Below, piece after piece: positions 6,059 to 53,016 of a stretch of DNA of 64,000 nt. The stretch comes from Candidatus Latescibacterota bacterium (GTDB lineage: Bacteria > Latescibacterota > UBA2968 > UBA8231): positions 5,248,001 through 5,312,000 of the forward strand of contig OZ253462.1 of NCBI GenBank assembly GCA_965261395.1, given 5' to 3'. A model generated the notes under the pieces. It saw only the letters and a program-made list of their open reading frames with translations. It ran no database searches and was not told where the DNA came from. Numbering within the stretch: position 1 is the stretch's first letter; each line of letters opens with the position of its first letter. The position numbers and the translations under genes are program-made.

Positions 6059-6114
6059 GTAGGGGCGTCCCCTAGGGAGCGGGGCATTTGGACGCCTACA
6101 AGGGTTGCCCCTAC
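6059..6114. repeat. GTAG-type REP-like palindrome
   Basis: GTAGGGGC...GCCCCTAC inverted ends; related elements at 33741-33768 and 35486-35499. Confidence 0.6.
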
Positions 6115-8375
6115 TGGTACGCAGCATAGTGCACGGAAAGCCCATACGAGCGGCCCGGCAGCGGGTAGCCCCACAGATCGGCCACTTGATTGTCGGTCAG
6201 GTTGCGCAACTCCCAAGACAAGGAGATGCCCTCGACCAACGGCACAGTGCCGCCGAGGTTGTATAGGGCGCGGACGGGCACGGCGCGCAGATTGGCCCGG
6301 TCGAGAAAATGCCGGCTTTCACGGCTAAATTCGCCGTATAGCTCAGCACGGCCTAGGTCGAGGGAGACGCGCGTATTGAGCCGATGACGCGGCGCATTGG
6401 GCAGGTCGTTGCCCCGTTCAAAAGAGAACGGGGTGCGGTTTTCAGCGCGCTGGTATGCGTAATTCCCACGGAGCGCCAGCCTTGGCAACAGCCGCGCTTC
6501 GACCCGAGTCTCCGCGCCGCGCAGCAAGGCCCGGCCCATATTGTGGGGCCGCGACACCCGCTGTGAGTTTTGTATAAAGCGAATGAGGTTTTCAACGCGA
6601 TTGCGATAGTACACGACCTCGGTCAGAACCAGCCCCACTTCATCGGCGGGACCACGGAAAACCACGCCCAAATCCCAGTTGTGCCCTTCTTCACTGACGA
6701 GGTTGGTATTGCCGATCACCGCGCCCCGGTCGCCGAACAGTTCAAAGAAATTGGGCGCGCGCTGATAGCGGCCGTTGTGGGTCTTGAGGGCCAAGCCAGC
6801 ACCTAAATCCAGGGCCGCGCCCATGCGGTAGCCCCACAGGATTTCGCCGTTGTCCCGGCTCGGCAACACCGCACTAGGCACGAAGTTCTTCCGATCGAAA
6901 AAGCGGTCGTCAAGCCCTTCTGCCTGCGTGCCGGCGTTGAGGGTCAAGCGCTGCCCAAGCGCTACCTCCACCTCGGTCCCGACGGCCAACGCCCGGCGGC
7001 GACTGCGCAAGAACCGACTGTCGGGCCGGAGTAGATCGTCGGGCACAAAGGTTTCGTGCCGAGCCGCTACAAAAGCGGTCAGCAAGGACTGGTCGGGCAG
7101 GAGGGCATTCACTTCGCCGCGCAGGCCCAAGCCCTGAGTGATGTTGCGGTCGTGCTGGCGGCCCAAACCCACTTCGCCGCGCCGATCCCGGTATTCGTCT
7201 TTTTCGCGGGAGAGGTGGGCTTTGAGTCGGTACCCGGCGCGGCTGTGCCCCAGCGGGCCGAAGAGCGCCGCTTCGGCAATATGACGCCACGTGTCGTAGC
7301 GAGTGTGCAGCGATTGGTTGTTGCCAATGCCGGGGATGCCTTTGTAGCTCAGGTCAAAGGTGTTGTGAATCTGCAAGCGGCTGGCACCCAAGCTGCGCCC
7401 GATTTTGGCCAAGCCGCGCAAGCCGCGAAAATCGCTGTTGAGCCGTCGCGCCCAGCCGTCGTCCTGAGAGTTGTACTCGGTGCCGTTGTCGTCCCAAAAG
7501 CGGAAGTCGTTGCGGCTGGCTCGGTAGTTGACCAAGCCCAAGTACTCCCAGCCCTTATAGGGGCCGCTGAGCGAAGCACCCAGTTGGCGGGTGTCGTACG
7601 AACCGGTGGCCGTGTGCAAGCGCGTGCGGACTTTGCCACCGAGTGGCTGGGTGCGGATGTGGACCACACCCCCGAGGCTGTTGCCGCCAAAGCGCGCTGG
7701 CACCGCGCCCCGGTATATATCGACGCTTTCGACGCCGCCGATGGACAGGCCGCCTAGATCCACACCACCGCCCACGGCTTGGTTGAGCGGCACCCCATCG
7801 AGGAAAACTTGGACCTGTTCGGCGGTGGACCCGCGAATGGAAAGGGTGCTAAAACTGCCCAACCCGCCGTAGCGGCGGATGTTGACGCCGGTGGCGCGGT
7901 CGAGGGTCTGGGCCAAGTCCGCACCAGGGGCGCGCCGGTTGCCCAAGGCGATGGTTTCGACGAAGGAGGCAATATGCTTGCCCTCGGGGTCGCGGCGGGC
8001 GCGGACCACCAACTCGTCCATGAGCATGGGCAGGGATTGCAGGTGCAACTCAACTGAAGTGGGGGCTGCGCCGATCTGGATGTGGCCTTGCAGGGGCCGG
8101 TAGCCCAGCCGTTCCACGCGCAAATCCCAAGTGCCTGTTGATAGATTTTCGAGCCGGAAGGTGCCGGTCGTATCACTGCGGACGGAACGGACTGCGCCGG
8201 ATGGGGCGCTCAGCGCCAATACGGCCCCGGACACGGGACGTCCCGCGTCTGGGTCGAGCAACCGGCCCTGTAGCGACCCGGCCAAAAGAGCCTCGGGATA
8301 CAGGGCCAGTAAGAGAAAAACAATAAAAAAGCCCGTCCTCGAATGAGGGCGGGTCTGGGTGCTTGTACTAGGCAC
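6111..8375 (-). CDS. btuB: TonB-dependent cobalamin receptor (BtuB-like) with an N-terminal carboxypeptidase-regulatory-like domain
   Basis: Plug motifs SIRGS..QVQVFLDGVP and GGVVHIRT; RAPNFFELF; C-terminal NLTD...YPLPGRSY; downstream of a cobalamin riboswitch. Confidence 0.85.
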   Translation of the reverse strand: MPSTSTQTRPHSRTGFFIVFLLLALYPEALLAGSLQGRLLDPDAGRPVSGAVLALSAPSGAVRSVRSDTTGTFRLENLSTGTWDLRVERLGYRPLQGHIQIGAAPTSVELHLQSLPMLMDELVVRARRDPEGKHIASFVETIALGNRRAPGADLAQTLDRATGVNIRRYGGLGSFSTLSIRGSTAEQVQVFLDGVPLNQAVGGGVDLGGLSIGGVESVDIYRGAVPARFGGNSLGGVVHIRTQPLGGKVRTRLHTATGSYDTRQLGASLSGPYKGWEYLGLVNYRASRNDFRFWDDNGTEYNSQDDGWARRLNSDFRGLRGLAKIGRSLGASRLQIHNTFDLSYKGIPGIGNNQSLHTRYDTWRHIAEAALFGPLGHSRAGYRLKAHLSREKDEYRDRRGEVGLGRQHDRNITQGLGLRGEVNALLPDQSLLTAFVAARHETFVPDDLLRPDSRFLRSRRRALAVGTEVEVALGQRLTLNAGTQAEGLDDRFFDRKNFVPSAVLPSRDNGEILWGYRMGAALDLGAGLALKTHNGRYQRAPNFFELFGDRGAVIGNTNLVSEEGHNWDLGVVFRGPADEVGLVLTEVVYYRNRVENLIRFIQNSQRVSRPHNMGRALLRGAETRVEARLLPRLALRGNYAYQRAENRTPFSFERGNDLPNAPRHRLNTRVSLDLGRAELYGEFSRESRHFLDRANLRAVPVRALYNLGGTVPLVEGISLSWELRNLTDNQVADLWGYPLPGRSYGLSVHYAAYQ
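8325..8354 (-). terminator. Hairpin plus U-tract inside the first codons of btuB (possible riboswitch expression platform)
   Basis: Minus strand reads GACCCGCCCTC-ATTC-GAGGACGGGC-TTTTTT. Confidence 0.5.
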
Positions 8376-8417
8376 CGGTGGACCAACCTTTCTGCCGAAG
8401 GGTGTCGTTCACCTCGG

Positions 8418-8622
8418 TCGCAGGCAGGTCTCCTGACTTCCGGTTATGCGCCGTCCGACTCCTTCCCGATCCACATGGGGATCAGTGGCTGATGTCGGGG
8501 ACGCGACGGCTAGTGAGCCGTCAACCGTTCACAGTGGCGGGACCGCGGCAGATTTGCACTGCCTTCCCTATTCTTCCGCTGCCGTAGCCGTACAACAGCG
8601 GACACCTGCGCCGTTATTTGAT
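8418..8622 (-). promoter_or_regulatory. Cobalamin riboswitch
   Basis: Minus strand carries AGGTG..., AATAGGGAAGGCAGTGCAAATCTGCCGCGGTCCCGCCACTGTG, GCCACTG...GGGAAGG and the B12 box AGTCAGGAGACCTGCC; lies directly upstream of B12 uptake genes. Confidence 0.95.
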
Positions 8623-8628
8623 TTGGCT

Positions 8629-9261: not shown

Positions 9262-9936
9262 CTAGTCCCTCAGTAGGATGTTCTGCTCCTTCAGGCTCTG
9301 GATTAGTTGGCTAAATTTAGGCACCAATCGGATCACGATACGTCGGTTAGGGGACTGTTCATCCTTTGTTCCGGTTAGAACAACCAGCTCTCGCTCGCCT
9401 AAGCCAACCGGGACGATATCAAAATTTTCCCAAGTGAAGCCGACCTGCTCCCAATAGTCCACTATAGTTTGAGATCGTTTCAGGGATAGACTGCGGTTGT
9501 ATTCCTTCTCGCCGTAACTGTCGGTGTGACCCTCTACCACAATACTGAACAATTTACTGTCTTTTTTTTCTATAAACTGCTTTAATTTTTGACCTATTCG
9601 CCTGAGCCGATTTTGCCCTTCGACGGGAATATCATCCAGATCGGATTCATTAAAAGAGAACAAGATATCACTACGCATCACAATAGTACCCTCTTCCACG
9701 ACGACGTCTTCCCCCCCCATAAATTCCTCTAACTCATCGAGATCTTTCTCTATCTTACCCACCAACTCTTCTAGCGTCCGCAGACGGCTCAGATCCACAT
9801 AATTTTTGATCACCATCACGACGAGAAAAAAAGTGACGCAAATGAAAATAGCCGTGATTGCGTCCGTGAAAGAAGGCCAGAAATTGAGCCCACTATGGCT
9901 ACTGTGATTCCTTTTCATCCAGGGCTGCTTTCCCAA
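9262..9936 (-). CDS. ZorB/MotB-like membrane protein with an OmpA-like peptidoglycan-binding domain
   Basis: FWPSFTD transmembrane helix with the conserved Asp; EGHTD, NRSLSLKRS and NRRIVI OmpA_C motifs. Confidence 0.85.
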   Translation of the reverse strand: MGKQPWMKRNHSSHSGLNFWPSFTDAITAIFICVTFFLVVMVIKNYVDLSRLRTLEELVGKIEKDLDELEEFMGGEDVVVEEGTIVMRSDILFSFNESDLDDIPVEGQNRLRRIGQKLKQFIEKKDSKLFSIVVEGHTDSYGEKEYNRSLSLKRSQTIVDYWEQVGFTWENFDIVPVGLGERELVVLTGTKDEQSPNRRIVIRLVPKFSQLIQSLKEQNILLRD

Positions 9937-9957
9937 GCATTCAGCCGATGGGCCTGA

Positions 9958-11631
9958 CTATTCCTTGCTATTTTTCTTGAATAATCGACGAATCCAACCC
10001 CAATTTCTTCGCGGTCGTACGGTTACAACTTGCGGCGATTTCGCCATGCCGTCCAACTGTTTTTCTATAGCCTGCGCCGTCGCATGCATGTCTTCAAGCT
10101 GGGGGATTACCTGATCGATAGCTTTCAGTACTTGGAGATCCTCGTCCGTTTTTTTGAACCCTTGATTGATGGCTCCTACCATTTGATCTAGCTGGTTCTG
10201 CAACGCCCCTGTCGCTTTGCTCAATCCCTGTAGATCTTGGCGAAGCCCTTCCAAGCCATCTTGTACAGGTTGGTTAGCCCGTTCAAACGCTTCGCCTTGT
10301 TCCTTACCCAATCTTTGCAGATCTTGGCGAAGCCCTTCCAAGCCATCTTGTACAGGTTGGTTAGCCCGTTCAAACGCTTCGCCTTGTTCCTTGAGGCCAT
10401 TACTGACAGCACTGAGCAGGTTCTGGATATTCGTGAAATGGGGACGATAATCTGTGTCATTCAATCCTCTTATCGTCTCTAGAGTCTCCGCTAGGCCGTT
10501 TCCTAGAATCTCTATTCGCTCCTCAAATAACTTGGATTGTTTGTCTATCCGCTCATCAAAGGCTTGAAACTGTCGGGCCATCAGTCGCTCGCTCTCCTTG
10601 AGCATAGTATCGACGCTGTTCTTGAGCGCATTCAGAGGCCAGCTTAGCCGCTCAAAGTTCTCGATGTGTCGAGAAAACTCTATAGCCGCTCTCATTATTT
10701 TTTCCGCCCCCGCAGCTACCGTATCCTTGTGCTGCTCAAAAATCTCCGCGCTCTTCAGACTGGCCTCGCTACTTTCCTTGAGCTTCGTGCCGCTCTCTTC
10801 TATAAGTAAGACCATGCGGGCGTTACTATTGACAATCTCCTTGAGTCTTTTGTCTAAGTATTCGGAAAGAGCAGTGAAATACTTATCGTATAGGTCGTTT
10901 ACTGTTCGAGTAAAGGCGTGACTCAAGCGCAACTGAGGAGGGATTACAGCAAACTTGGGAGCGATCTTCGCGTTGAAGCACTCTTCCATGTTTGCCAATA
11001 ATGTGTTCCTACTGTGGAGTAGTGGGCTGTACAGAGCATTGAGGATTAAGGTGGAAAAAAGTCCTATTATACTGGTAATGAACGCCAGCGGCATCCCGCT
11101 TACGGACTGTCCTAATCCTTCTAGGATGGTACTAAATACATCCTCTATTTTTACCTCTTGGCTCAACGTCGGTGAAATCTGCGCTCCTTGGATAATACCT
11201 GGGATAGGTATGACCACGATTATTAAACCAACGAATGTGCCCAGTAGGCCCAATAGAATGAGGCTGCTGGTAAGTGAGCGGAATGCTTCGTCGTACCGGG
11301 CGAGTTCGTGTTCGATAGAGCCGATAAGACCGTCTACATCTGGAGCTTTATTTTGCCGGTATAAGGCCCTAAAATGTTCGAGCCAACGGACGGCTAGAGG
11401 ATGCTGAGCTTTCTTAAAAACTTCGGGAGATTGCTCAGTCTCTTCCTCCATATTGAAATTAGGATTGCTTTTCTCCCATCTCTCCATAGCATGCAATCCG
11501 CTGCGATATCGCCGCGTTTCTCTGCATCCTTGGACAAATAGGACAAGTGCAACTAGACCGACCAAGATAATGAGAACGATAAAAACGTCCCGAATCTGAT
11601 CGCTGTTTTGGGCTAAAAAGTCTAAACTCAT
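9958..11631 (-). CDS. ZorA-like MotA/TolQ/ExbB channel protein with a long cytoplasmic coiled-coil tail
   Basis: Three transmembrane helices, including LGLLGTFVGL and GMPLAFITSIIGL, followed by ~350 aa of helical heptad-rich sequence; directly upstream of the MotB-like gene. Confidence 0.8.
   Translation of the reverse strand: MSLDFLAQNSDQIRDVFIVLIILVGLVALVLFVQGCRETRRYRSGLHAMERWEKSNPNFNMEEETEQSPEVFKKAQHPLAVRWLEHFRALYRQNKAPDVDGLIGSIEHELARYDEAFRSLTSSLILLGLLGTFVGLIIVVIPIPGIIQGAQISPTLSQEVKIEDVFSTILEGLGQSVSGMPLAFITSIIGLFSTLILNALYSPLLHSRNTLLANMEECFNAKIAPKFAVIPPQLRLSHAFTRTVNDLYDKYFTALSEYLDKRLKEIVNSNARMVLLIEESGTKLKESSEASLKSAEIFEQHKDTVAAGAEKIMRAAIEFSRHIENFERLSWPLNALKNSVDTMLKESERLMARQFQAFDERIDKQSKLFEERIEILGNGLAETLETIRGLNDTDYRPHFTNIQNLLSAVSNGLKEQGEAFERANQPVQDGLEGLRQDLQRLGKEQGEAFERANQPVQDGLEGLRQDLQGLSKATGALQNQLDQMVGAINQGFKKTDEDLQVLKAIDQVIPQLEDMHATAQAIEKQLDGMAKSPQVVTVRPRRNWGWIRRLFKKNSKE
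10232..10392. repeat. In-frame tandem duplication (87-bp period, 74 bp identical) in the ZorA-like tail
   Basis: 10232-10305 is identical to 10319-10392 and encodes KEQGEAFERANQPVQDGLEGLRQDLQ twice. Confidence 0.95.
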
Positions 11632-11688: not shown

Positions 11689-12639
11689 TCATTTCGCTAG
11701 CAAAATCCCGGACTTAACAATTACCTCAGTTCCCCGACGTAATCCAGGTGTAACAAATCGAATCACTTGACCGCGGCCTACCTGAGAATCTTCTCGCTCA
11801 TCGGAAATTTGGTGATCTTCTGGCGAGTATTTGTCCCCTTGCTCTGGCCAAATCAACTCAAAGTCGCGTTCTTGGGCAAATCTTTCCAATTTTGCGGGTT
11901 TCTGTTCTAGCGATTTTTCTTTGCCATCCAACTGTTTGATTAAACCGATCAGTGCAGAATCCCACGGACTGCTACAACTGTCTATCTTAGCTTGGATCGT
12001 CGTCCATTGATCTTTGAGAGCCGATCCCTCCGATATAAAAGAGACAAAATCCAATTTATTCACTGCCTCTTTGATCTTTTTGATGTCCTCGTCAATGGTC
12101 TCGGCATACTGTATCGACGGCATACTCTTTTCAGGTTCTAGTGGCAGTTCGTCGAGCATTTCTCGGAAACGATCTCGGGTATTTGTAATCTTTGAGTATT
12201 TTTTCATCCATTCTTCGGCAGCATCCCGTACTTCTTCTTGGAATGATCTTAGTCTCTTTTCCACATCAACCTCTAGCTTTTGCAGCTCTTGAAACTTGGT
12301 GTTGATAGGGATAGACTGGTAGAGATCTGCGTAATCGTCGTAGGAGGCTTGTATATTGTCGTGGAACTTTGTCAGCTTTTTTCTGAAGTTACTCAAATCG
12401 TTCAAAAACATGCCAACTTTCTTCACAAAGCTCTCTTCCGCTCCATCGAAGCCCTTGGCTACATCGAGGATATCCGAGAAGACGAGGCTGCCGAGATCGC
12501 CCTTGTGTAGTTTCTCGCGGATATGTCTTGTCTTATCGACCATTTCTCGCAGACCTTGGAGTTCTTTCTCCCAGCAGGCAACCTCGCTGCCTAGCGCGTC
12601 AACCTTTTCTTGAAATTCTGCCATTGATACCTTACCCAT
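11689..12639 (-). CDS. Coiled-coil protein with a C-terminal GrpE-like (nucleotide exchange factor) domain
   Basis: C-terminus IWPEQGDKYSPEDHQ...GQVIRFVTPGLRRGTEVIVKSGILL resembles the GrpE head (GexFDPxxH...GxVxxVxxxGY); next to an Hsp70-like gene. Confidence 0.7.
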   Translation of the reverse strand: MGKVSMAEFQEKVDALGSEVACWEKELQGLREMVDKTRHIREKLHKGDLGSLVFSDILDVAKGFDGAEESFVKKVGMFLNDLSNFRKKLTKFHDNIQASYDDYADLYQSIPINTKFQELQKLEVDVEKRLRSFQEEVRDAAEEWMKKYSKITNTRDRFREMLDELPLEPEKSMPSIQYAETIDEDIKKIKEAVNKLDFVSFISEGSALKDQWTTIQAKIDSCSSPWDSALIGLIKQLDGKEKSLEQKPAKLERFAQERDFELIWPEQGDKYSPEDHQISDEREDSQVGRGQVIRFVTPGLRRGTEVIVKSGILLAK

Positions 12640-12834: not shown

Positions 12835-12864
12835 GTCAGGTGCATTGGCATTGCTACAAGGCAT

Positions 12865-15800
12865 TCAACTGTAGTTAAAGTTCTTGCATTCCAAGTATTC
12901 ACCATAGATTTCTTCAAAATCACTTCCATCCTTTTTCTGCCCTACCGCGAAATTGTAATAGAGCCGACCGAGATTGTTTTCATCGCCTCGAAGCTCGAGC
13001 TTGTACTGCCAATAAGCGATCTGCCGAAAAGCCCTGTCCTCTATGTCCTCTAGCGGTATGGGAATATCCGCTACTTTATGCCGATCTGCTCTCCGATTTT
13101 TGTAGTTCCAATCGAAGAATTCGTACAGTGAGATCTGAGAAAGTCGATCCTTAGAGAAAACCTTGCTCGTATAGGGATGTACCTCTCCCTTATTTAGGGA
13201 AATCCAACGATCGAAAATGGGCCTGAAGCCTCGCATTGGATTGTAGGAACCTATCGGATAATTTAGCTTGTGTATCCCGAAGACTTGAAATCTGAACTCT
13301 GGATCGCGTTGAGACATGCCGTAAATAGCCGCTCCCGAAGCTACGCTCGCCTTCAAGTCATTATTGGAGCCTGCCTCTGAAAGAGCAGGGTCAGAAAACT
13401 TTTTAGCCTGTATCTCCTCTGAGGCGACTTCTTGCACAATCGGCAACTTGGACGAATTGCCGGCCAAGATCAGATGATCCAGCCGCATTTCTGATATAAT
13501 CCCCCGATCATAAAGTTCCTTCTGCATCATAGCTAGTTTTTTGAAACCCTGTTTCAATTCTCGGCTGAACACCGAGCGAATAGCCTCGTACTTCATAGGG
13601 CTAAGTTCCTCCGGCAAGGCTTCGTCCTTGTCCTTGATGCTGCGCTTTAATCCCTCCGTGACTTGAAATACATCGCCCCCATCCGGGCTGACCAATTCAA
13701 TTTTGGGCCACTTTAGTTCCTCGTCACTGGCTAGCAGGTCCAGCAATCCCTTATCTCTTGTCTTTTGTAGTTCCTCGTAGCGTTTTTGGGAAAAACATTC
13801 GTCGAACAACTCATAGCTCTTGCTGTTTGTCTTGATCCTCTCAGCTAACTGATAGAGGTGCAGAAAGTTCCTTTTCACACTGGTATCTTGGGTGCGTAAG
13901 CCATCTCGCAGATCTTTTGCAAAGGGATAGCGACTGCGGTACTGTTCCGGGACGAGTTCCTCGTAGAAGTATTTAGCCAAGTGAAATGTCAGCAGGTTCC
14001 CTCCCAGCAGATTGTCGCCATCGGAACCGAGAATTTTCACTTGCACTTCATTATCATCGCTAGTGTAACGTACGATAGACATATCGGTCGTTCCCCCACC
14101 GCAGTCGAATACCCCAATGATCTGTTCATCTCCCGGATTATCCTCCCCGAGCTTCCACACATAATACACCGCAATAGCTTCAGGTTCACTAATAGCTAGA
14201 TCTCGGTCGAACTTAATGTCGTGATCCTGCAAAGCCTGTTCGACCGCGTTCTGCAGAGCCTGTTTTTGGCGATTGAATATCGCCGGATAAGTTAGTACGA
14301 CCTCGCTAGGTGAATACCCGGATTCTCCGATGAAGTGCTCTACCATAAACCGGAGATAAATAGCTACTTGGTCCACCGGAGTCAGGCTGATATGCCGCCT
14401 ATTTATAGAGGGATGTCCATTGATCAAGATACCTTCCGACATCCCGGTAGAAATATAGAAATTCTGATCGTCGGGTTGGCTGAGAGCGTATTTGAAACTC
14501 CAGCAGATACTGCTCATAAAGTTCCAGAACTCATTGACGTCATTATTGTTATTGAGCGAAAGGTCATTCATCTGCCGAAATGGCTGACGACCAAAGCGCA
14601 TGATGGCTTCCTCGTTCTCGGTTGCAACCAAGTGATGCTCATTCGGCTCCAGAGAGTGGGTCAGTTCCAAACGTTCCGTTTTATTATTTATTGCCAGAAG
14701 CTGAAAGACAGTCGGTATTTCGACGCGAGGTTCATCGCTCTCGAGGTCTGCCAAGTGAGGCATCTCTCCATCTTCAACATAATAAGCCAAGCAGGAATTG
14801 GTTGTCCCAAAATCGATGCCAATGGGATAATCTAACGGTTTGGGAGGAATAACCTCGACAGGGAGCGAAAACCTCTCTTCGAACGCCGGATCTTCCGCTT
14901 CTATATCCTCAGCCTCTCCCTTGACTATGATCTCGGGTTCAAAATGCTTTGATTCTGTTGTCTGCGGGATATCGATAGTCTTCACTTGCAACTGCAACTG
15001 GAGATTCAGCACACTCTCCTCATCAGCACCCGCCGCTGCACTCTGAGAGTCAAGGAGGGCCTTCCTTGGGGGGTCAACGACCTGTAGCCAAGGCGTATCG
15101 CTGGTCACGCTATTTATGCGTAGTGGTGCGCCCCGTAAGTGCGTAATGGTGGCACTCACCTCTTTCGGTCTTCGACTTCCGCTGATAAGTGCCGTATCAC
15201 CGGATAAACTCAGCGGATTGAAGTCCAGCTTGAGCACCGGCTGACGAGTGTACTTTAGATTGAGACGAAATTCGACGTCACCTATGTTCTGGATGGGAAA
15301 AACGAGATGTACAGGATGTCCTTCTTCAGACAGATCTTGATGTCGGGTGAGCTCTACCGAAAAGGCTTTGTATGGGGCCAAGCGGAAGGGATAGTTTACC
15401 TCGTTTTCCAGCACCGCCACTTGCTCTTCCTGGGACAGACGGGGACACTTTCCCAAGACCACTTCGCTTGTAGCGTGCAGGGCCAGATTGTGCCTCCAGG
15501 CTTTCTCATTCACCGGCCACAACTGTGCGCCGTCAGTGCCTTGGTCAAACTCCCGCCCCTGCTCGTCAGCCAGCCAGATTCGGGGAGCCTTTTGGACCCG
15601 ATAATGAAATGAAATCGGTGACACCGTGGAGTGCAGGATCAACCGCTCCCGTTGGCCGTGAGACTCGGCATGCAGCCGACGTATTTCTATTGCTTCCCCT
15701 AGATCCAAGGAGACGGGCCAATTCGCTTCCGAAACCCATGCTCCCCATTCTACTCCATCGAGACGTTCCAGTTTCACGGGTATTTTCCCGGTATTCTCGA

Positions 15801-15996
15801 ACCGCATGATGACTGGAAAGCCTTCGAAAAGCGTCAACGACTCAACGGGCTTGGGAGATACCTCTAGACGGGCGAGTTGAGTCCCGCAACTGCTGCAAAA
15901 GATGATTCGGCTTCCACAAGGCCACTGACAAACAGGACAAGCACCCATCGCCTTATCGACCCGCTCTTGACTCGCTTCCCTAGGCATTGGCACCAT
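12865..15996 (-). CDS. Divergent Hsp70-family ATPase with an N-terminal zinc ribbon and Ig-like region (not DnaK)
   Basis: IGIDFGTTNS, ISEPEAIA, VFDCGGGTTD, LGGN, LAGNSSKLP and VASGAA Hsp70 ATPase motifs starting at about aa 390; N-terminal CPVC...FCSSCG; no DnaK substrate-binding domain recognisable. Confidence 0.85.
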   Translation of the reverse strand: MVPMPREASQERVDKAMGACPVCQWPCGSRIIFCSSCGTQLARLEVSPKPVESLTLFEGFPVIMRFENTGKIPVKLERLDGVEWGAWVSEANWPVSLDLGEAIEIRRLHAESHGQRERLILHSTVSPISFHYRVQKAPRIWLADEQGREFDQGTDGAQLWPVNEKAWRHNLALHATSEVVLGKCPRLSQEEQVAVLENEVNYPFRLAPYKAFSVELTRHQDLSEEGHPVHLVFPIQNIGDVEFRLNLKYTRQPVLKLDFNPLSLSGDTALISGSRRPKEVSATITHLRGAPLRINSVTSDTPWLQVVDPPRKALLDSQSAAAGADEESVLNLQLQLQVKTIDIPQTTESKHFEPEIIVKGEAEDIEAEDPAFEERFSLPVEVIPPKPLDYPIGIDFGTTNSCLAYYVEDGEMPHLADLESDEPRVEIPTVFQLLAINNKTERLELTHSLEPNEHHLVATENEEAIMRFGRQPFRQMNDLSLNNNNDVNEFWNFMSSICWSFKYALSQPDDQNFYISTGMSEGILINGHPSINRRHISLTPVDQVAIYLRFMVEHFIGESGYSPSEVVLTYPAIFNRQKQALQNAVEQALQDHDIKFDRDLAISEPEAIAVYYVWKLGEDNPGDEQIIGVFDCGGGTTDMSIVRYTSDDNEVQVKILGSDGDNLLGGNLLTFHLAKYFYEELVPEQYRSRYPFAKDLRDGLRTQDTSVKRNFLHLYQLAERIKTNSKSYELFDECFSQKRYEELQKTRDKGLLDLLASDEELKWPKIELVSPDGGDVFQVTEGLKRSIKDKDEALPEELSPMKYEAIRSVFSRELKQGFKKLAMMQKELYDRGIISEMRLDHLILAGNSSKLPIVQEVASEEIQAKKFSDPALSEAGSNNDLKASVASGAAIYGMSQRDPEFRFQVFGIHKLNYPIGSYNPMRGFRPIFDRWISLNKGEVHPYTSKVFSKDRLSQISLYEFFDWNYKNRRADRHKVADIPIPLEDIEDRAFRQIAYWQYKLELRGDENNLGRLYYNFAVGQKKDGSDFEEIYGEYLECKNFNYS

Positions 15997-18030
15997 CCAT
16001 CACATATATATCGTCTTTGCAGTGAGGATCGCTATAGTCTAGGGGTTTGGCAAAACCATCTTTGTTCTGCAAGTGTTTGCCGATACGGTCGTCCAATTCG
16101 CTGTCGCTAATGCCCAAGCGCTGCTGCACATCCTTGAAATTCTCTTTGAAAGCCTTGATAAGCAAACTGTGGAACAAGTCATCCACATTCACACTCTGGC
16201 CGTCTATTACAACTCTTCTTTTGGGATATACCTCACTCACTAGATGGCTTTGGAGGGCCAAGTACTGCTCAAAAACGAGGCCATTGCCATCCGATTTCCA
16301 GTTATCCCAAATCTTTTGCACCGCTTGGCGCAGCCTATTTCGTTTCTCCCGGTCTCGGGCCAAACTCCGGCGTGCCACCTCGATATTGGGTCCGTAATCG
16401 TCCGTGTGCTTTAGGCCCTGTTCTTGGTAAGTTCGGTAGAATCCCCGTCTGTCAAAAGTCACTACCTCGAGTAAGATACCATCAATGAGCGGCTGTAGGG
16501 CATCCACTAGCATCCGCGCTTCTTGGTCGTCCCTAGGCGGTAGTATCTCCGGATATTTGATATAGTCTTTGGTCATGTACCGACGGAATACATTCTGCGG
16601 CACTCTAAGGTTGTTTTCGTATGCTCTGTGCAGCTTCCTCAAATTGTCGATAGCGAACAGAGGAAAGGCCATCCATTGACTGACAAATATCACCGAATCG
16701 GGGGCGTGATACTCCGCTTTGTATCCTCCCACGTTTTGGTCGACTAGCTCCTCCCACCTTTTTTCATTTGGGGGAAGTCCTATGGTTTTCCGAGTGTGGT
16801 TCGACATACCCTGCGGGGCAGGTTTCAACTCGGACATCCGCGCTTCGGCTAGCCGTGCTCGTTTCTGCATCTCCTCTTTCTCGTTATGTTTCTGATTTTG
16901 CAACTCTTGAACGGCGTTTCTATCGGCATAGAACTCCTTAAATAGGTCAAACGCGAACCGACTCAGTGAATCCTCTACCTCTTCCCAATCACGAGGGGCA
17001 TTGTTCTTATTCGCCGAGCGATTGAAAATAATGCGGGTACAATCTCGTATGGCATCGATCTCTGTCCCTTCGAGATTAGCGTACTCAGCAAACAGCGGCT
17101 TGGCTTCTTCCGAGCGGAAATACCTCCTCAAAATATCTTGCAAAATTTCCTTGAAACCGGCACCTGTCAGTCCTCTTTTTTCGAGCTCCTTCCTTATTGC
17201 CTCCTCATAGTTAAGTTCGGGCATGAGACTGAGGTTGCGTACACTAGGCATCCGCTTTCTATAAGAATTATGGAACCCCTCAAATCGGCTAGCCAGATCT
17301 TGGAGATGTTTTTGAAATTCCTCTACCTTGGCCAGCAAACCGCTGAATTCCACATGGAGTTCACCATCTGCACCCCGGACTTCGGTCTGTTGGCCGACAA
17401 AGCCGATCATATTGTCAAGCAAGCCCTTTTCCTGCACCCGTCCCCCGGAATTGGGATTGAGCAGACGCCCAGCCGCTTCCTTCTCATAGCGAGTGGTGAC
17501 CCATTCCTTGAGTTGCTTCTCGACAGCCTTCACCTGCTGCACCAGATTACGGGTGATAAGCTCGGCGTTCTGCTTAAGGGATTGCTTTTTGCGTCCTTTG
17601 TAATGGTTGATAGCAATGCGTTTAGTTGAGAAGGCAAAGGGCATCTCCTCCCTAGCCGCTTTTAGGCGAGCCTCGTATTTCTCGTAATCTTCGGTAAATT
17701 CGATTTCGAGCGGCGGTGCCTCTAGTGCTTCTATGTCCTGATTCTCCCTAGCCTGCAATTCCTCTTTGATGCGCTCCAGTTCGCGGACGGCGATCTTCAG
17801 CCACTCAACCATAAACTTGGGGCCGAAATTCAAGGGGTCGCACAATAATTCAAGACACTCATCCTCTACCCGCTTTTCGAGCTTGGGACGATCCAAGCCG
17901 ATATTTTCCAGGATCTGCGTCACACCATCGCCCTTTTTGGTGCCTTGCTGTAACAGTCTTTCCCCTACTCGTTCCTTCACCTCGCGGACTAATCTACCCA
18001 TATCCTGCCGCGTTTTTTCCACTAGGTGAT

Positions 18031-19215
18031 GGCTTTGGTGCATGAATTGGTGTTTTTTTCGGTTGATCGGTTGAATAAAAACAGGCTCCTCAGTAGATTG
18101 AGCACGACTTTCGCCAAAAAACCCATGCTTTCTCGTCCAAGGAACCTGTCATGGCCAACCTATCGTCTTGCCCCTCTTCCGTCAAGCCTGGTCGCTCGCC
18201 TCGCCGTCGCTCCAACGTCGTGTACCGGGTACGTAATTGGGCCGACTATGAGGCCGGGCTGCAACAGCGCGGTAGTCTGACGGTGTGGTTCACGCCCCAG
18301 GCCGTCGAAGCTTGGTATTATCAAGGGCCGCCTCAGCGGGGGGCGCAATATACCTTTTCGGAGGTCGCCATCCAAACGGCGTTGACGCTGCGTCTTTTGT
18401 ATCACTTGCCCCTACGCCAAACCGAGGGGTTTGTCGCTTCGGTGTTGGCCCTGATGGGCTTGGATCTGCGGGTGCCCGATCACACGACCCTGTCGCGCCG
18501 TCAGGCGGGTTTAGCCGTGGCGTGGCCGCCCCAGCGGGGAGACCAACCGATGCACTTGGTGGTGGATTCGACCGGGCTGAAAGTGTATGGCGAAGGCGAA
18601 TGGAAGGTGCGTCAGCACGGCTGGAGCAAGCGGCGCACGTGGCGCAAATTGCACCTCGGGGTTAATGAAGCCACCGGCGAGATCGTCGCGCAGACCTTGA
18701 CGACGAATAGCCACGATGATGCGGGGCAGGTGGAGCCGTTGCTGGCACAGATCGAGGCCCCCGTGGAGGCGTTGGGCGGCGATGGGGCCTATGACAAACG
18801 CAAGGTGTTCAAGGCGTTGGCCGCGCCCGAGCAGGGGGCACCTATTCATCCGATCATTCCGCCGCGCAAGGACGCCAAAATCGAGCAACATGGCAACACC
18901 AACGCCGAGCCGTTGCCCCGCGATGAGACGATTCGAGCCATCCGCAAACGGGGCCGTCGAGGTTGGAAACACGAGAGCGGCTATCATCGACGCTCGGTAG
19001 CCGAAACGCAGATAGGCCGCTACAAACAGATACTTGGTGACACCTTGCGCACCCGAACCCTAACCAACCAACAGACCGAAGCGCGGTTGGGCTGTGCCTT
19101 GCTCAACCGGATGCGGGCGTTGGCGAAACCTGAGTCCTATCCGCTAACCAAAAAAGCGTAAATCACACGCGAAAGAAGCCAACACGGCCCCGACCGGTTT
19201 TCATGCAACAAAGCC
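18031..19215 (+). mobile_element. IS5-family insertion sequence, IS903 group (1185 bp)
   Basis: Terminal inverted repeats GGCTTTGGTGCATGAA / TTCATGCAACAAAGCC; perfect 9-bp target duplication CTAGGTGAT at 18022-18030 and 19216-19224. Confidence 0.95.
18151..19161 (+). CDS. IS5-family (IS903 group) DDE transposase
   Basis: YRVRNW..Y..GL..RGSLTVWF, PDHTTLSRR, VDSTGLK, WRKLHLG, DGAYD and GYHRRSVAET motifs. Confidence 0.95.
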   Translation: MANLSSCPSSVKPGRSPRRRSNVVYRVRNWADYEAGLQQRGSLTVWFTPQAVEAWYYQGPPQRGAQYTFSEVAIQTALTLRLLYHLPLRQTEGFVASVLALMGLDLRVPDHTTLSRRQAGLAVAWPPQRGDQPMHLVVDSTGLKVYGEGEWKVRQHGWSKRRTWRKLHLGVNEATGEIVAQTLTTNSHDDAGQVEPLLAQIEAPVEALGGDGAYDKRKVFKALAAPEQGAPIHPIIPPRKDAKIEQHGNTNAEPLPRDETIRAIRKRGRRGWKHESGYHRRSVAETQIGRYKQILGDTLRTRTLTNQQTEARLGCALLNRMRALAKPESYPLTKKA

Positions 19216-20728
19216 CTAGGTGATCCAAATCCTTTTGATCCTCTACCGCCGATGCCGTGTGCAACTCGTTCTGCAACTCATTGAAAGCCGGTTCGATCAA
19301 CTCGTTGACGACCTCATCAATCAAGGTGAAATCCTTTCCCGGCTTGGCCAAGCAGCGTTGCAAAAAGAGTTTCTCAGTTAGGCCCATCCCCTCTAAGCGG
19401 GGTTTGACATCGGCATCATCATAGCCCTGAGGGATTCTGTTGTCCTTGGCCATGATAAGTTCTACCAGATACTGAGCGCAACGGTTAGCAGCCGCATTGG
19501 CCAGACGAGGCTGATTCAATTCAATCTGGGAGAGCCCGAAAGATGCATATCGGCATGGAAAATACTGGACATAGCTTCCGTTGTGGTAGCCTGTCACATC
19601 CTGTAGGTACTGCTCCATATTGGAACGTACGCTGCGCTTTTGAGCGGCAAATCTAGTCCGGTCGAAATCCAGCAGCAGAAACTCAGCAATCATCTGGAAC
19701 GTATCGGTAAATTCGGTGATGCGTTCGCCAGCCACATTCTCGTTGTCGAGCATATAGACCGTATCAAAAGGCGGTGCTGGCACCGGCCGAGGGCTACCAC
19801 CACCCCAATTAAATTCGTGGGTGGAGTATTCGCTTGTCTCCTTATCCTCGTCGGCGACAAACCGGGGCTGCATGAAGTATTCGAGTTCCTTGAGGGCGGC
19901 AAAGCCATTGGCATGGACGGCTTCTGTCCCGGCGGATCCCACTACATCGTCGAAAACCGTGGGCATGGCAAGAAAAGCCGTGCGCGTAGAAGTTGGGAAC
20001 AAAACTCGACACAGAAATCCGACATCGATAAAGCAGCCAGACCCCGTTCCACCGCCGAGAGACGATATAATAATGATATCGAAGGCCCTAGTATCTACCG
20101 TATAATCTGGGTAATCGCGGTTCATGTCCGCGAAGGCCTCTTGGGCAGTTACTTTTCTCCCCAATCTTTCGATGGCGTCGTGAATTTCCGTGTAATGGTG
20201 GAAGAAAGCCAATCGCCCGAAGGAACGGATCTGCCCAGCACCTTGCATGATGGCATTAGCAGGCAGCGCGTCCAGTTCGCTGGGAAACCAGTCCCATATA
20301 TGCGGATAGGCATTCTTGTTGAGCCGGTATCCAGCCAACTCCTCGGGCTGGACCCGTCCATCAATTTTCTGTGGAGCGGTAAGGTCAATGCGCTTGTCCA
20401 ACTCGTCGGGCACCTCTCCGCTCAGGGACTGATTGCGGATATCAGTATCAAACCATAGGTACTCCATGATGGGTAAACCCGCTACTCTGTACTTCTCGTA
20501 GAACATCCGTCGCAGCCGCCGCAGTACTTCCTTTCCCGTACCTCCCAAGCCGATCAAAAGCGTGGGACGGATATCGATCGTTTGGCTTCCTTCTTTTGCT
20601 GTACCTATAGTAGTTATCTCAACCATGGTGTTCTCCTTCAATGTTGATCCAACTCAGTCATTAGATGCTTTTCAGGTCGAAGCCCCCGACGGCTGTCGTA
20701 CGAGGGCATTGGGACTCACTCGGAATTC

Positions 20729-21760
20729 TCAGCGGCGGCTTGGCCGGGTGACAAGTTTTGCTATCACCACAATGCAGAGGATCACCATCCCAAAGATGAG
20801 GATTCGCCATTCAATTTGCGAACTTGACTCCCAGCCCATCAAAAAATCAAAAAATCCGCTCAACCCCAAAGAGGCGATCAGCGCAATGCCTCCCCACAAC
20901 ACGAGGGCGGACCAACCAAAAGCTGTGGCCGGGTGCATGTCTCGGGTCTTGATGAGTCCGCTAAAAAGTAAGACCGAAAGGATATAGACGATTACAGAAA
21001 GTACCAAAATCCAGACTATGCGCCCAACCTCCACATAGCGAAAGGTGCCCTTCGATCTAGTCTCCGGCGGAGGTACCCCTACCTCGACAGGTTCATATTG
21101 GTCCGAGGAGATGCCCAGCAGCGGTTTAGCTTCATCAATTGAGACCGCAAAGTTGAGATTCTGCCCCTCGTCGTGGCTAGAGCTTAGATTAAAACTTACC
21201 ACGCCAATTACCTCTCCGTTCTGGTCGAATAAAGGCCCGCCGCTATTGCCCGGCGATACGGCGGCATCCGTCTGAATCAGTCTGAGGCCCTCCGGGGTAG
21301 TGCGAACCTCGGAGATAATCCCTTCGGTGACCGAGTATTCTAGCCCCAAGGGGTTGCCTATTGCCACCACGGGATCGCCCGAGCTCATATATTCTCCTGA
21401 CCCAAGCCTAGACGGCTGTAGGTGTTGGCCGCGCGGATCGACGTTTATCACCGCCAGGTCTTTGAGTTCGTCTTGGGCGACAACGCCCGTAATCGGCATC
21501 CAAGTTCCTTTGAAAGGCTTGGCCCATCCTTCTTTGATGCCCTTGATTACATGGTGCGCCGTGAGAATTTGGCCCGTTGACTTGATGATGATTCCGCTCC
21601 CCAGCCCTTCTCCCTCATTGGTAGAGACCTTGAGGAATACTACGCTTCCCTTCTCTTCCTTGGCAATCCGCTGAGTAAACGTGGAGCCGCTTTGTCCCGA
21701 CCCGCCACACCCCATCCAGCCGATAGCCAGTATGAATCCGAGCGTGATGTGCCGTTTCAT
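20729..21760 (-). CDS. Trypsin-like (S1C) serine protease with a lipoprotein-type signal and ~3 C-terminal transmembrane helices, no PDZ domain
   Basis: Catalytic triad motifs TAHHV, DLAV and GNSGGP; IQTDAA; N-terminal ...GWMGC; hydrophobic C-terminus. Confidence 0.88.
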   Translation of the reverse strand: MKRHITLGFILAIGWMGCGGSGQSGSTFTQRIAKEEKGSVVFLKVSTNEGEGLGSGIIIKSTGQILTAHHVIKGIKEGWAKPFKGTWMPITGVVAQDELKDLAVINVDPRGQHLQPSRLGSGEYMSSGDPVVAIGNPLGLEYSVTEGIISEVRTTPEGLRLIQTDAAVSPGNSGGPLFDQNGEVIGVVSFNLSSSHDEGQNLNFAVSIDEAKPLLGISSDQYEPVEVGVPPPETRSKGTFRYVEVGRIVWILVLSVIVYILSVLLFSGLIKTRDMHPATAFGWSALVLWGGIALIASLGLSGFFDFLMGWESSSQIEWRILIFGMVILCIVVIAKLVTRPSRR

Positions 21761-21775
21761 CTTGACTCCCTAGTG

Positions 21776-23404
21776 TTATTTGAGGCGTTCCAGTTCAAAT
21801 TCATTGCCCTTGTGTTTGAAAACCCATTTTTCATCCTTTTCAAAAGCCATCCCCTCCTCACCGACTGGATCGTCCATCCGATTTCTTAGTTCGGCCCTTT
21901 CGTCGCCCTCTTCGGCCGGCAGTAAGCGGTATTTGCATTTGAACAGGCCGTCTCGCCGCAAATATCCCAAAACGATATCCTTTCCGCTTTGGTTTGTGTA
22001 CTCCAATTCCTTTTGACCGCCGGGGCGCATCCAGTACTTGTACTCGACGTCTGCCAGCCGATAAACGAGCCTCCTGAAATAAACCATTCCCCCGGCAGCT
22101 ACCACAGCGATGGGTAGCAAGATCACCACGACCCAAGCCCGCCACAGATAGAGAGGGGAACGGACTTGCAACCTGCCTCTTATGGCTCCTCCCTTGGGCA
22201 CCACTTCCAAACCCTCTCGGTCTCGGTGCAGGAAGTGTATCAGATCGTCTGGCGTATAGATACGCTCGACCTCTTGGGGGTTGTCGGTAAAGTACTTCTC
22301 CTGATAAAGAGGAGTCATGCGAAACGAGCCAGGCGGTATTTCCAAGACAACCTTGGACATATATTGCATCGGAATCGGGCTGGTACGCGCCATGTCAAGC
22401 TGGTCGAAGAAGCCAACCTCGTTGGGCTGGAACGGGCCTAGGCGGATCCGGCACGAATAGCGGTATTTGTTCTGGGTATTGTGCTCCAGTTTCTCTTCAA
22501 GGCGGGGTGGAGTAACTCGTCCTCTCCCACTGGCTCGAATCCAGTACCGCCGGTCTTCGGGCTGCATGGGAACGATCCTAGGCTGACTCACCTTCAACCG
22601 CACCGGATTACCATGCTCATCTGTCGGCTCGATATTCAGGTAGCTCAATTGCGACTCTAGAGTAAAGGAGAAATCGACCGACTCGGATTCGTCCATGCCG
22701 ATATCACTTAGCTGGTCCGAAGGTGTCCTGCGTTTGCGATGTAGAACAATGCGGTGGTCTAGCGGTTTCATCAGCATCGGTTCCAAGCCGCCAGCCTTGA
22801 GTTGGGAGATGAGTTTGCCGAATCTAGCGCGCTGATCTTCTTCTGTGAGATAGGCATACAGGACCACCCCACGCGGACCTTGGTGGTACGCCTTGTCCGG
22901 GTGATTGAACAACCGCCCGTCAAAGGGCAGACTCAGCGGCACGGCATATAGTACTTGTACCACATCCTCCGCAAAACGCGCATAGAGCCCCCGAACATCC
23001 TCGTCATTGGTGGTCGCCTGCACATTATCGGTTAAGAAAAAAGTAATCGGCGCCCATCCAAGCCCTTCTTCAAAAGCCCTGAGCAAATTAGTATAGCTGC
23101 CCCAGCGTGCGTCTTGGGTCTCCTCGATCCACACTAGCGAATCCGGGTGTTGGGATACAAAAAATAAAGTGCCCGCCTCCAGTTGCTGGTCTTGGCAGGC
23201 TTTTTCCAACGAGGTCAGCAATTTCTGTAGCTCACCTGTCTGCTGGAAGCCCTCCATTGAACCAGAGCCATCGACCAATATGCTGACATCCATCCCAGCG
23301 GCGGCACGAGGGCCGCCAAGCCCTAGGCAGCACAGCAGAGCAGCGTACCAGAATGACCGGCTTTCAAACGGCCAATAGGTCATAGCGATACAGATGGTAC
23401 TCAT
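21776..23404 (-). CDS. vWA-domain single-pass membrane protein
   Basis: Signal peptide, MIDAS-like ILVDGSGSM ... T ... FLTD, C-terminal transmembrane helix (AWVVVILLPIAVVAAGG) and a short cytoplasmic tail. Confidence 0.7.
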   Translation of the reverse strand: MSTICIAMTYWPFESRSFWYAALLCCLGLGGPRAAAGMDVSILVDGSGSMEGFQQTGELQKLLTSLEKACQDQQLEAGTLFFVSQHPDSLVWIEETQDARWGSYTNLLRAFEEGLGWAPITFFLTDNVQATTNDEDVRGLYARFAEDVVQVLYAVPLSLPFDGRLFNHPDKAYHQGPRGVVLYAYLTEEDQRARFGKLISQLKAGGLEPMLMKPLDHRIVLHRKRRTPSDQLSDIGMDESESVDFSFTLESQLSYLNIEPTDEHGNPVRLKVSQPRIVPMQPEDRRYWIRASGRGRVTPPRLEEKLEHNTQNKYRYSCRIRLGPFQPNEVGFFDQLDMARTSPIPMQYMSKVVLEIPPGSFRMTPLYQEKYFTDNPQEVERIYTPDDLIHFLHRDREGLEVVPKGGAIRGRLQVRSPLYLWRAWVVVILLPIAVVAAGGMVYFRRLVYRLADVEYKYWMRPGGQKELEYTNQSGKDIVLGYLRRDGLFKCKYRLLPAEEGDERAELRNRMDDPVGEEGMAFEKDEKWVFKHKGNEFELERLK

Positions 23405-52169: not shown

Positions 52170-52589
52170 TCAATTGGTTGGTTCTTCGGTTTCAATGTCG
52201 ATCTGTCCTATGCCCGCCATGGTAGCCGATTCCATTGCGTCGATGATATGGCCGTGCGCAGCATCGGCGTCCGCGGTGATAATCAGCGTCGATGAGCCGG
52301 TGCGGACCTTTTCGCGCTCTAGCCAGCTCGCTAGCTGCCCCATGGCCACTAGCTGCCCGTTGATCTCGAGCTGGCCCTCGCTCGAGATCCGCAGATTCAG
52401 CTTCTTCTCTGCCTTGAGCTGGTCGTAGTGCACCGAGTCGGGCAGCTCAATCCTGAGCTGAGTGGCCTTGATGAAGACCGTGGTGGTCATAAAGAAGATC
52501 AGCAGCAAGAACACCGCGTCTATCATCGGCGTCAGGTTCAGTTCAAATTCGCCGGCTTTTTCGGCCAGCGACTGTCTCCGTTTAGCCAT
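52170..52589 (-). CDS. exbD: ExbD/TolR family protein
   Basis: LNLTPMIDAVFLLLIFFM and ADADAAHG motifs. Confidence 0.9.
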   Translation of the reverse strand: MAKRRQSLAEKAGEFELNLTPMIDAVFLLLIFFMTTTVFIKATQLRIELPDSVHYDQLKAEKKLNLRISSEGQLEINGQLVAMGQLASWLEREKVRTGSSTLIITADADAAHGHIIDAMESATMAGIGQIDIETEEPTN

Positions 52590-52596
52590 GCCGCTT

Positions 52597-53016
52597 TTAT
52601 CCTTCTCCGCTCTTGGCGAAAGCAATGGCCTCAATGCCCTCGCCGCGGGCGATGTCCATCACCTGCACCACATAGGAGTGAGGCACTGAACGCGCGGACT
52701 CCAAGATCACGTTCTTGGTGTTGTCGGCCTCGATGACTTGACGGATCTTTGCCGCCAAGCGCGCCTTATCCGTGACCTCGCCGTTGACTTGGATCGTCTG
52801 ATCCGGATCAATCACGATGTTCATGTCCTTGGTCGCTCTCGACTCACCCTCGCCGCCCGGCAAATCTACGCTCAGGCCCTTGGGGTTGACGAAAGTAGTC
52901 GCCACCATAAAGAAGACCAACAGCAAGAACATGCAGTTGATAAGCGGAGTCAGATCCGGGTTCTCCGTGGTCTTGAAGGCACTTTTGCCGAATCCGCTCT
53001 GTCGTCTCTGCCGCAT
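52597..53016 (-). CDS. exbD: ExbD/TolR family protein with Asn in place of the conserved transmembrane Asp
   Basis: DLTPLINCMFLLLVFFMV; VVQVMD.ARGEG. Confidence 0.85.
   Translation of the reverse strand: MRQRRQSGFGKSAFKTTENPDLTPLINCMFLLLVFFMVATTFVNPKGLSVDLPGGEGESRATKDMNIVIDPDQTIQVNGEVTDKARLAAKIRQVIEADNTKNVILESARSVPHSYVVQVMDIARGEGIEAIAFAKSGEG

Follow-up and report, generated by a model that had tools for sequence, protein, structure and literature searches.

The genome of a Candidatus Latescibacterota bacterium (GenBank assembly GCA_965261395.1) carries two adjacent genes whose products resemble, weakly, the ZorA and ZorB proteins of the Zorya defence system. These genes, referred to here as encoding the A and B subunits, were analysed in a 64-kb stretch of contig OZ253462.1 (positions 5,248,001 to 5,312,000 of the forward strand), hereafter the window, together with 21-kb loci of relatives; coordinates are those of the window unless a related locus is named. 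The A/B pair forms the final, conserved module of an envelope-spanning operon of eight genes with a low content of guanine and cytosine (GC). All operon genes form one tight string on the minus strand, within a low-GC stretch from about 8.5 to 24.7 kb, where GC is about 0.45–0.54 against approximately 0.62 in the flanks. In order of transcription, the operon encodes a zinc-ribbon-like protein of 429 amino acids (aa; 23364..24653), a 542-aa membrane protein (21776..23404), an HtrA/DegP-family protease (20729..21760), a Tubulin_2 (FtsZl1) protein, an Hsp70-like ATPase (12865..15996), a 316-aa coiled-coil protein (11689..12639), the ZorA-like A subunit (9958..11631) and the ZorB/MotB-like B subunit (9262..9936). 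The tubulin-like gene is divided by an insertion sequence (IS) element into an N-terminal part (19216..20641) and a C-terminal part (15980..18030). Two of the gene boundaries are overlaps, of 17 and 41 nt, and gaps elsewhere reach 225 nt; the zorA-like gene is bordered by gaps of 57 and 21 nt. The original prediction placed the pair at the end of its operon with no helicase or HNH gene behind it, and this is what the locus holds: the zorB-like gene is followed by a cobalamin riboswitch (8406..8624, minus strand) and a TonB-dependent receptor gene (6111..8375, minus strand). A terminator-like site was looked for 3' of the zorB-like gene and none was found, and neither tRNA genes nor direct repeats were detected at the ends of the island. 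Because the A- and B-subunit proteins are kept at 76–99% identity in eight other genomes, both open reading frames (ORFs) represent real genes rather than chance ORFs.

The A subunit is a 557-aa protein with three hydropathy peaks, which place transmembrane (TM) segments at residues 15–33, 123–141 and 182–205. A cytoplasmic loop of approximately 85 residues follows TM1, and a periplasmic loop of approximately 35 residues lies between TM2 and TM3. This spacing agrees with that of an ExbB protein encoded elsewhere in the window (14–32, about 124–145 and about 166–187), and the motifs GLLGTFVGL in TM2 and GMPLAFITS in TM3 are invariant across 18 homologues. The Pfam MotA_ExbB profile scores 19.5 bits against the A subunit, below its cut-off of 22.9 bits, while the PADLOC models ZorA1, ZorA2 and ZorA3 match with E-values from 4.6e-10 to 2.7e-3 and jointly cover residues 21–530. 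The PADLOC ZorA and ZorB matches are collinear across core and tail, and antiphage_ZorA_2 is the sole representative of the MotA superfamily among the matches of the A subunit to 18,950 NCBIfam models. A tblastn search of 72,556 plasmids with the A subunit gave no match at an E-value of 0.01.

The most distinctive part of the A subunit is its cytoplasmic tail, which comprises residues 205–557 (nt 11019–9961) and thus extends 353 residues past TM3, in line with the predicted MotA-type protein bearing three TM segments and a helical tail of about 350 residues. The long tail had also been taken to set this protein apart from ExbB, and indeed the ExbB of the window stops approximately 37 residues after TM3. 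The hydrophobic periodicity of the tail is 3.58 residues, a value reached by none of 300 shuffled sequences; the helix is amphipathic and closes with a conserved basic/aromatic tip, RPRRNWGWIRRLFKK. Across the 18 homologues the length of the A subunit varies from 528 to 594 aa, and tail indels occur only as blocks of 11, 22 and 29 residues, apart from one single-residue indel just behind TM3, in the opening residues of the tail. The blocks equal three, six and eight turns at about 3.63–3.67 residues per turn. One of them is visible at the DNA level as an 87-nt tandem duplication (10217..10390, minus strand; family D1 of the repeat search, 94% identity), in which a 29-aa unit stands twice; homologues carry one, two or three copies (n = 18). 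Indels of whole turns fit a continuous coiled coil whose length would matter. The long C-terminal helical coiled-coil tail that characterizes Zorya ZorA is therefore present here, as judged from periodicity and indels. In E. coli ZorA, any truncation of the tail is reported to abolish defence (PMC11946911).

The B subunit measures 224 aa if read from TTG at 9936 or 218 aa from ATG at 9918; the latter start is more likely, because database homologues begin there. It was described beforehand as a MotB-type protein with an FWPSFTD motif and an OmpA domain, a description borne out by a single TM segment (residues 25–43) opened by D25 of that motif, followed by a short coiled linker and an OmpA-type peptidoglycan-binding domain at residues 93–198 (Pfam OmpA, E-value 1.1e-12). 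The PADLOC ZorB1 model matches at 5.6e-21, aligning residues 8–218 with profile positions 7–228 of 232, and the E. coli ZorB chain 8qyd_F matches at 4.8e-6 (residues 7–159 against 8–164). The NCBIfam ZorB1 match covers the TM segment and linker, and NCBIfam MotB models align with the OmpA part only. No ExbD match was found with Pfam, and a PDB search with the first 85 residues returned nothing useful. In E. coli, Asp26 of ZorB is reported to be essential, and mutation of Y151/N152/L155/R159 to abolish peptidoglycan binding (PMC11946911). D25 should correspond to this Asp26, since the alignment with 8qyd_F starts at residue 7 against 8, and Y146, N147, L150 and R154 of the B subunit agree with the peptidoglycan-binding pattern (Y-N-x-x-L-x-x-x-R). 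All 15 aligned B subunits, among them a sister group of 60–67% identity, a Deinococcus protein and those of two stand-alone pairs, have D25 and the OmpA-type N-x-x-L-S-x-x-R residues without exception.

The upstream genes supply putative cytoplasmic and envelope partners. The Tubulin_2 GTPase domain (Pfam E-value 9.1e-66), with a GGGTGSG signature, lies in the 475-aa N-terminal piece of the tubulin-like protein, and the intact gene of the related locus L001 (1154 aa) scores 7.2e-67. The C-terminal piece of about 680 residues is 99% identical to residues ~476–1154 of the L001 protein, and this region has no match in Pfam, NCBIfam or the PDB. The intervening IS element (18031..19215, plus strand, 1185 bp), whose boundaries were set by comparison with L001, encodes a DDE transposase (Pfam DDE_Tnp_1_5, 7.3e-39; DDE_Tnp_1, 1.2e-22), ends in 16-nt terminal inverted repeats and is flanked by a 9-bp target duplication, CTAGGTGAT, at 18022–18030 and 19216–19224. 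One end of the element supplies an ATG to the C-terminal piece, which could be translated as a 687-aa fragment. Because the insertion splits the tubulin gene, which is intact (1150–1158 aa) in all eight related loci, the operon is probably disabled in this genome only.

The Hsp70-like ATPase (1043 aa; Pfam HSP70, 8.6e-14) begins with a Cys4 zinc-ribbon-like motif and an N-terminal region of about 380 residues without an assigned fold; it matches nucleotide-binding-domain structures of DnaK, best 1dkg_D at 3.1e-13, and its NCBIfam DnaK and HscA scores fall far under the cut-offs. The 316-aa coiled-coil protein, found in all eight related loci, has a conserved C-terminal domain of about 70 residues and is possibly GrpE-like. 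Its residues 117–164 align with positions 7–54 of Pfam GrpE (E-value 2e-4) and its last 99 residues with positions 105–157 (0.13), matches that are collinear and sub-threshold. The HtrA-like protease (343 aa; Pfam Trypsin_2, 3.9e-29; NCBIfam DegP/HtrA, 4.8e-41, under the cut-off) carries a signal-like segment at its N-terminus and three TM segments towards its C-terminus, which by prediction puts the protease domain in the periplasm. Hydrophobic at its N-terminus, the 542-aa protein contains a DGSGS (DxSxS) motif and one TM segment at residues 425–443; its C-terminal part of about 400 residues is conserved in the eight related loci, and its position corresponds roughly to the vWA gene slot of FtsZl1 operons. 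The 429-aa protein, with a Cys-rich zinc-ribbon-like N-terminus, has no family match and no visible Walker A motif. Its gene is probably the first of the operon, given a 41-nt overlap of its end with the following gene and its position in the same low-GC stretch.

A scan of one genome per species with the A subunit recovered 33 loci, eight of which, all from Latescibacterota, show 76–91% identity. In all eight the gene order is identical from the 542-aa protein through the HtrA-like protease, Tubulin_2, Hsp70-like, coiled-coil and ZorA-like proteins to the ZorB-like protein, and in seven a TonB-dependent receptor gene comes next, within about 0.3–1.4 kb. The island has a GC content of 0.49–0.50 against 0.60–0.70 in the flanks in all nine genomes. 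Its evolution also shows signs that resemble those of genetic conflict, among them low GC, a swapped cassette, the IS element of the window and an apparent frameshift in L005. Compared with L001, the window proteins are 99% identical for the protease, tubulin and ZorB, 96% for ZorA, and only 72% for the Hsp70-like and 70% for the 316-aa protein; the best matches of the latter two lie elsewhere, at 82% in L002 and 94% in L005, respectively. At the DNA level, identity between the window and L001 is 99–100%, falls to 62–89% from L001 position ~6260 to ~9950, and then recovers. The diverged block of approximately 3.7 kb (window 12639–15500) begins about 165 codons into the Hsp70-like gene, covers the larger part of it and all of the 316-aa gene, and stops just before zorA. 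This pattern indicates that an Hsp70-like/coiled-coil cassette has been exchanged by recombination. The tubulin gene in turn falls into two allele groups, about 70–76% identical to each other. In L005 (10001–11601), the ZorA-like frame is broken near codons 88–96, giving two tblastn pieces in different frames and a longest ORF of 450 aa, which reflects either a frameshift or an assembly error. In L002, 3'-end fragments of a glycogen-debranching-enzyme gene lie just after the zorB-like gene (12535–12795); in the window, the debranching-enzyme gene (24782–26761) borders the opposite end of the island. These fragments may be a trace of island insertion or rearrangement.

The relation of the pair to known stator-type motors was assessed from these features. 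To our knowledge, Zorya is the only system in which such a motor is known to signal into the cytoplasm. The likeness to Zorya includes an A subunit in which three TM segments precede a long helical tail in the cytoplasm, a B subunit combining a TM aspartate with an OmpA-like domain, a B gene placed directly after the A gene, and a tail whose length appears constrained, as in E. coli ZorA. On the other side, the tail measures 353 residues here and about 500 in E. coli ZorA, and the periplasmic TM2–TM3 loop is longer. ZorC/D, ZorE and ZorF/G are missing from the locus. Partner genes precede the zorA-like gene instead of following zorB, and those partners include tubulin- and Hsp70-family NTPases, whereas the partners in Zorya are DNA-binding or nuclease proteins. 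The claim of a ZorA/ZorB-like pair without zorC, zorD or zorE is thus upheld by the model matches and by the eight related loci. The resemblance itself holds for anatomy and for the PADLOC models, and fails at the curated family scores, where the B subunit reaches 34.7 bits of the 400 required by NCBIfam ZorB1 and the A subunit likewise falls short. Among 1.84 billion representative sequences, 289 relatives of the A subunit reach an E-value of 0.001 and 14 reach 1e-10; of 36 such relatives scanned, 34 match ZorA models, with E-values no better than 5e-16, and two match none. By sequence comparison, the pair is therefore part of a long-tailed ZorA-like cloud outside Zorya types I–III.

Other stator families were considered and rejected. 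The ExbB of the window (53035..53709, minus strand; MotA_ExbB, 100.5 bits) shares the three-TM spacing and the GLLGT motif with the A subunit, but it ends soon after TM3, its pairwise similarity to the A subunit is confined to the TM2 motif, and its partners have the ExbD fold rather than an OmpA domain. An ExbB–ExbD or TolQ–TolR identity is ruled out by the OmpA-type B subunit and the length of the A tail. Flagellar MotA has four TM segments and a large cytoplasmic domain between TM2 and TM3. A flagellar MotA–MotB identity was rejected, as only three TM peaks are present and the operon contains no flagellar genes.

Operons that combine a tubulin-like protein with envelope proteins have precedents. 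FtsZl1 operons with vWA and OmpA-like proteins were described by Makarova and Koonin (2010, PMC2875224), who proposed a role in membrane remodelling. In the accessible part of that source, the main text speaks of OmpA-like proteins only, and MotA is named solely in a supplement table, which gives Deinococcus DR_0538 as FtsZl1, DR_0537 as a MotA/TolQ/ExbB protein of 411 aa and DR_0536 as OmpA, with the same FtsZl1/MotA-like/OmpA trio on a D. deserti plasmid. A Deinococcus plasmid record accordingly contains a tubulin-like gene followed by genes for a 411-aa MotA-like and a 200-aa OmpA protein; the ZorA and ZorB models give weak matches to this pair, and the alignment of its A core with the TM core of the A subunit shows 25% identity. 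The Deinococcus FtsZl1 operons and the present one share a large Tubulin_2 protein with a long C-terminal extension, then a MotA/TolQ/ExbB-like protein and an OmpA protein of about 200 residues, the whole set being membrane-associated. They differ in that here the tubulin gene is separated from the motor genes by those for an Hsp70-like ATPase and a coiled-coil protein, the operon includes a protease, the only sign of a vWA protein is the DGSGS motif, and the A-subunit tail is longer than the approximately 210 residues found in Deinococcus. The link between FtsZl1 and a motor was thus already tabulated in 2010 for Deinococcus. The ZorAB-like reading is, as far as found, unpublished: no published link between ZorAB and tubulin-like or FtsZl1 systems was encountered in the literature, and the accessible part of PMC11890865 contained no text on new, orphan or ZorAB-like Zorya variants.

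A further precedent comes from predicted conflict systems in which tubulin, HSP70–GrpE and vWA proteins surround DO-GTPases (Kaur et al. 2020, PMC7159879). As in those DO-GTPase/GAP1 systems, tubulin and HSP70 homologues, a possible GrpE and TM components occur together here, and constant parts are joined with parts that vary among close relatives. A difference is that no P-loop GTPase or recognizable GAP1 was detected in the operon, no GAP1 model having been used; a GTPase domain of the DO-GTPase kind was not matched in any operon protein by Pfam or NCBIfam. In the accessible part of PMC7159879, tubulin and HSP70 appear in separate themes, from Firmicutes and Actinobacteria, and MotA, MotB, ExbB and TolQ are not mentioned. 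Tubulin_2 genes also occur in eight plasmid records, of which six were examined. They stand directly after vWA genes in three of the six and near caspase or CHAT proteases in two, and in the Thermus and Meiothermus plasmids BrxL follows Tubulin_2 at a distance of one gene. The Meiothermus record also has a HEPN gene close by.

According to the original prediction, the tail would recruit the cytoplasmic proteins encoded upstream, whose identity as a Tubulin_2 GTPase and an Hsp70-like ATPase it had not recognized. Tight and conserved operon linkage and the Deinococcus operon with tubulin, MotA-like and OmpA genes make a functional link between the motor and the upstream genes likely. The reading preferred here is that an intact, strongly diverged ZorAB-type motor acts as the membrane module of a tubulin/Hsp70 operon, module and linkage being given a probability of roughly 0.6; NTPases in the cytoplasm would receive its signal through the tail. 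If it works like Zorya of E. coli, an envelope disturbance would lead the B subunit to bind peptidoglycan, proton flow would rotate an A pentamer, and the tail would relay the signal so that cytoplasmic NTPases, in place of a nuclease, assemble at the motor. The outcome would probably be either a response of the conflict or defence kind or a local remodelling of the envelope; a defence role taken by itself is somewhat doubtful. The sequences establish the anatomy of the pair, its conserved linkage, the mosaic evolution and the steps in tail length; subunit stoichiometry, rotation, contact between tail and partners and biological role are inferred. A more specific version of the preferred reading is a nuclease-free system in which the ZorAB-type motor, rotary and proton-driven, is an envelope sensor, a membrane assembly of tubulin-like and Hsp70-like proteins is the output, the tail serves as a ruler that changes by whole helical turns and the exchanged cassette sets specificity; this version is speculative and rather unlikely.

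Several observations weigh against the preferred reading and, in part, against a defence function. The A subunit scores only 16.7 bits with antiphage_ZorA_2, whose cut-off is 100 bits, and a PDB profile search with the A-subunit family gave nothing significant, the ZorA structure 8qyy_A appearing at an E-value of 0.25 through the tail alone; the fold and 5:2 assembly of the pair are predicted by analogy with E. coli ZorA5B2. The 542-aa protein has no match in Pfam, NCBIfam, PADLOC or the PDB, which leaves a vWA assignment unsupported, and a PDB profile search found no GrpE for the 316-aa protein, for which the hidden Markov model test failed as well. No toxic or nuclease effector was recognized in the operon, and no PADLOC system model covers its other genes. 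The island occupies the same chromosomal site in at least seven of the eight species-level relatives, which resembles stable vertical inheritance more than the behaviour of a typical mobile defence island. The remaining 25 loci of the species scan are distant relatives of the A core, from Bdellovibrionota and Pseudomonadota. In the seven neighbourhoods scanned (54 ORFs), the pair stands alone in a housekeeping setting, its OmpA partner is elongated, and tubulin, Hsp70 and vWA genes are absent; because these seven pairs lack tubulin, the motor family as a whole is not tied to it. In five distant loci (L009, L011, L016, L025 and L027), MotA-like proteins of approximately 380–400 aa are paired with OmpA proteins of 615–825 aa that have long coiled linkers. 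The N-termini of the Bdellovibrionota-type B proteins match NCBIfam PRK09039 "peptidoglycan-binding protein" models, as does the B subunit studied here, and the Bdellovibrionota pairs are an uncharacterized stand-alone stator-like family.

These distant pairs bear on two alternative explanations. According to one, the A/B genes are an autonomous two-gene module that has only by chance come to stand behind a tubulin/Hsp70 operon to which it is unrelated, as MotA-like/OmpA pairs do exist on their own. This is improbable, given that the order is the same in all eight related loci, that the genes share a strand with gaps of only 21–57 nt and no detected terminator-like site, that the low GC is common to the pair and the rest of the island, and that adjacency to a tubulin-like gene is repeated in Deinococcus. 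According to the other, the motor is an outward energy transducer of the ExbBD–TonB or TolQR–TolA kind, powering periplasmic partners as a housekeeping envelope machine with no part in defence. Such a role would suit a protease domain and a 542-aa protein that are predicted to lie, respectively, wholly and for the most part outside the inner membrane. It would also suit the stable chromosomal position in seven of the eight relatives, the lack of a nuclease or toxin among the operon proteins, the housekeeping contexts of the distant pairs and the membrane-remodelling proposal already in print for FtsZl1 operons (PMC2875224). However, a transducer working outward has no obvious need for a 353-residue tail with register-preserving length steps and a conserved tip, the B subunit carries a peptidoglycan anchor and not an ExbD/TolR fold, and low GC, cassette swapping and inactivation by an IS element or frameshift point to a dispensable accessory system. 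It is thus considered unlikely, although less so than a chance neighbourhood.

The remaining alternative, that the locus is a decayed Zorya system, starts from the stretch behind the zorB-like gene, where about 880 nt contain no long ORF and from which zorC, zorD and zorE might have been deleted (8.4–9.3 kb). The original prediction had named such a scar, with the lost genes still present beside close homologues, as the finding that would speak against it. None of the three genes follows the zorB-like gene in any of the eight related loci, and models for ZorC, D, E, F and G (PADLOC) matched none of the 41 window ORFs scanned. The first kilobase after the zorB-like gene is 95.7% identical to L001 and holds no extra gene, with small indels in the other loci, and about 220 nt of the stretch are the riboswitch of the TonB-dependent receptor gene (Rfam RF00174, 110 bits, full length). 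Because of this identity and the riboswitch, the stretch is conserved non-coding DNA and not a scar of lost genes. The partner genes, moreover, precede the zorA-like gene, unlike those of Zorya. Decay from a complete Zorya system is therefore refuted within the fetched loci and is the least probable of the explanations considered; judged by the sequences of these loci, the A/B pair appears never to have had ZorC/D/E partners.

Several other features of the window lie outside the operon. The TonB-dependent receptor encoded directly downstream of the riboswitch is probably a B12 or corrinoid importer, and the ExbB gene, together with two ExbD genes that follow it (52597..53016 and 52170..52634, minus strand), presumably energizes it. 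A 531-aa protein (31971–33566, plus strand) combines Schlafen AlbA_2, HATPase_c_4 and Fic-like C-terminal domains and matches the PADLOC pAgo model at 3.3e-25, probably through a shared domain. The C-terminal part of a 439-aa protein (751–2070, minus strand) matches PADLOC mad3 (2.5e-28) and AriA (3.1e-14), and this protein may be a defence-type ATPase outside the island. In addition, a 1550-aa protein with PA, M28 peptidase and FtsX permease domains is encoded at 35585–40237 (minus strand), and a second low-GC patch (40000–42000, GC 0.49) contains two small plus-strand ORFs.

The conserved position of the A/B pair suggests that a ZorAB-type motor also serves another membrane system, distinct from Zorya. 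In the arrangement described here, the motor is hard-wired to tubulin-family proteins in two phyla, Latescibacterota and Deinococcota, and in Latescibacterota to an Hsp70-family protein as well. Should this linkage prove not to be functional, the pair would be one more diverged relative of MotAB and ZorAB. If it is functional, the range of processes under the control of stator-type motors would be wider, and the FtsZl1 "membrane remodelling" operons would gain a concrete input device. The natural steps in tail length (11, 22 and 29 residues) and the cassette swaps would then be ready-made experiments. If the envelope-sensor reading were true, direct tests would become possible for FtsZl1 systems, which have gone unexplained since 2010, and ZorAB-like motors would be a general signal-input device for several unrelated sets of effectors.

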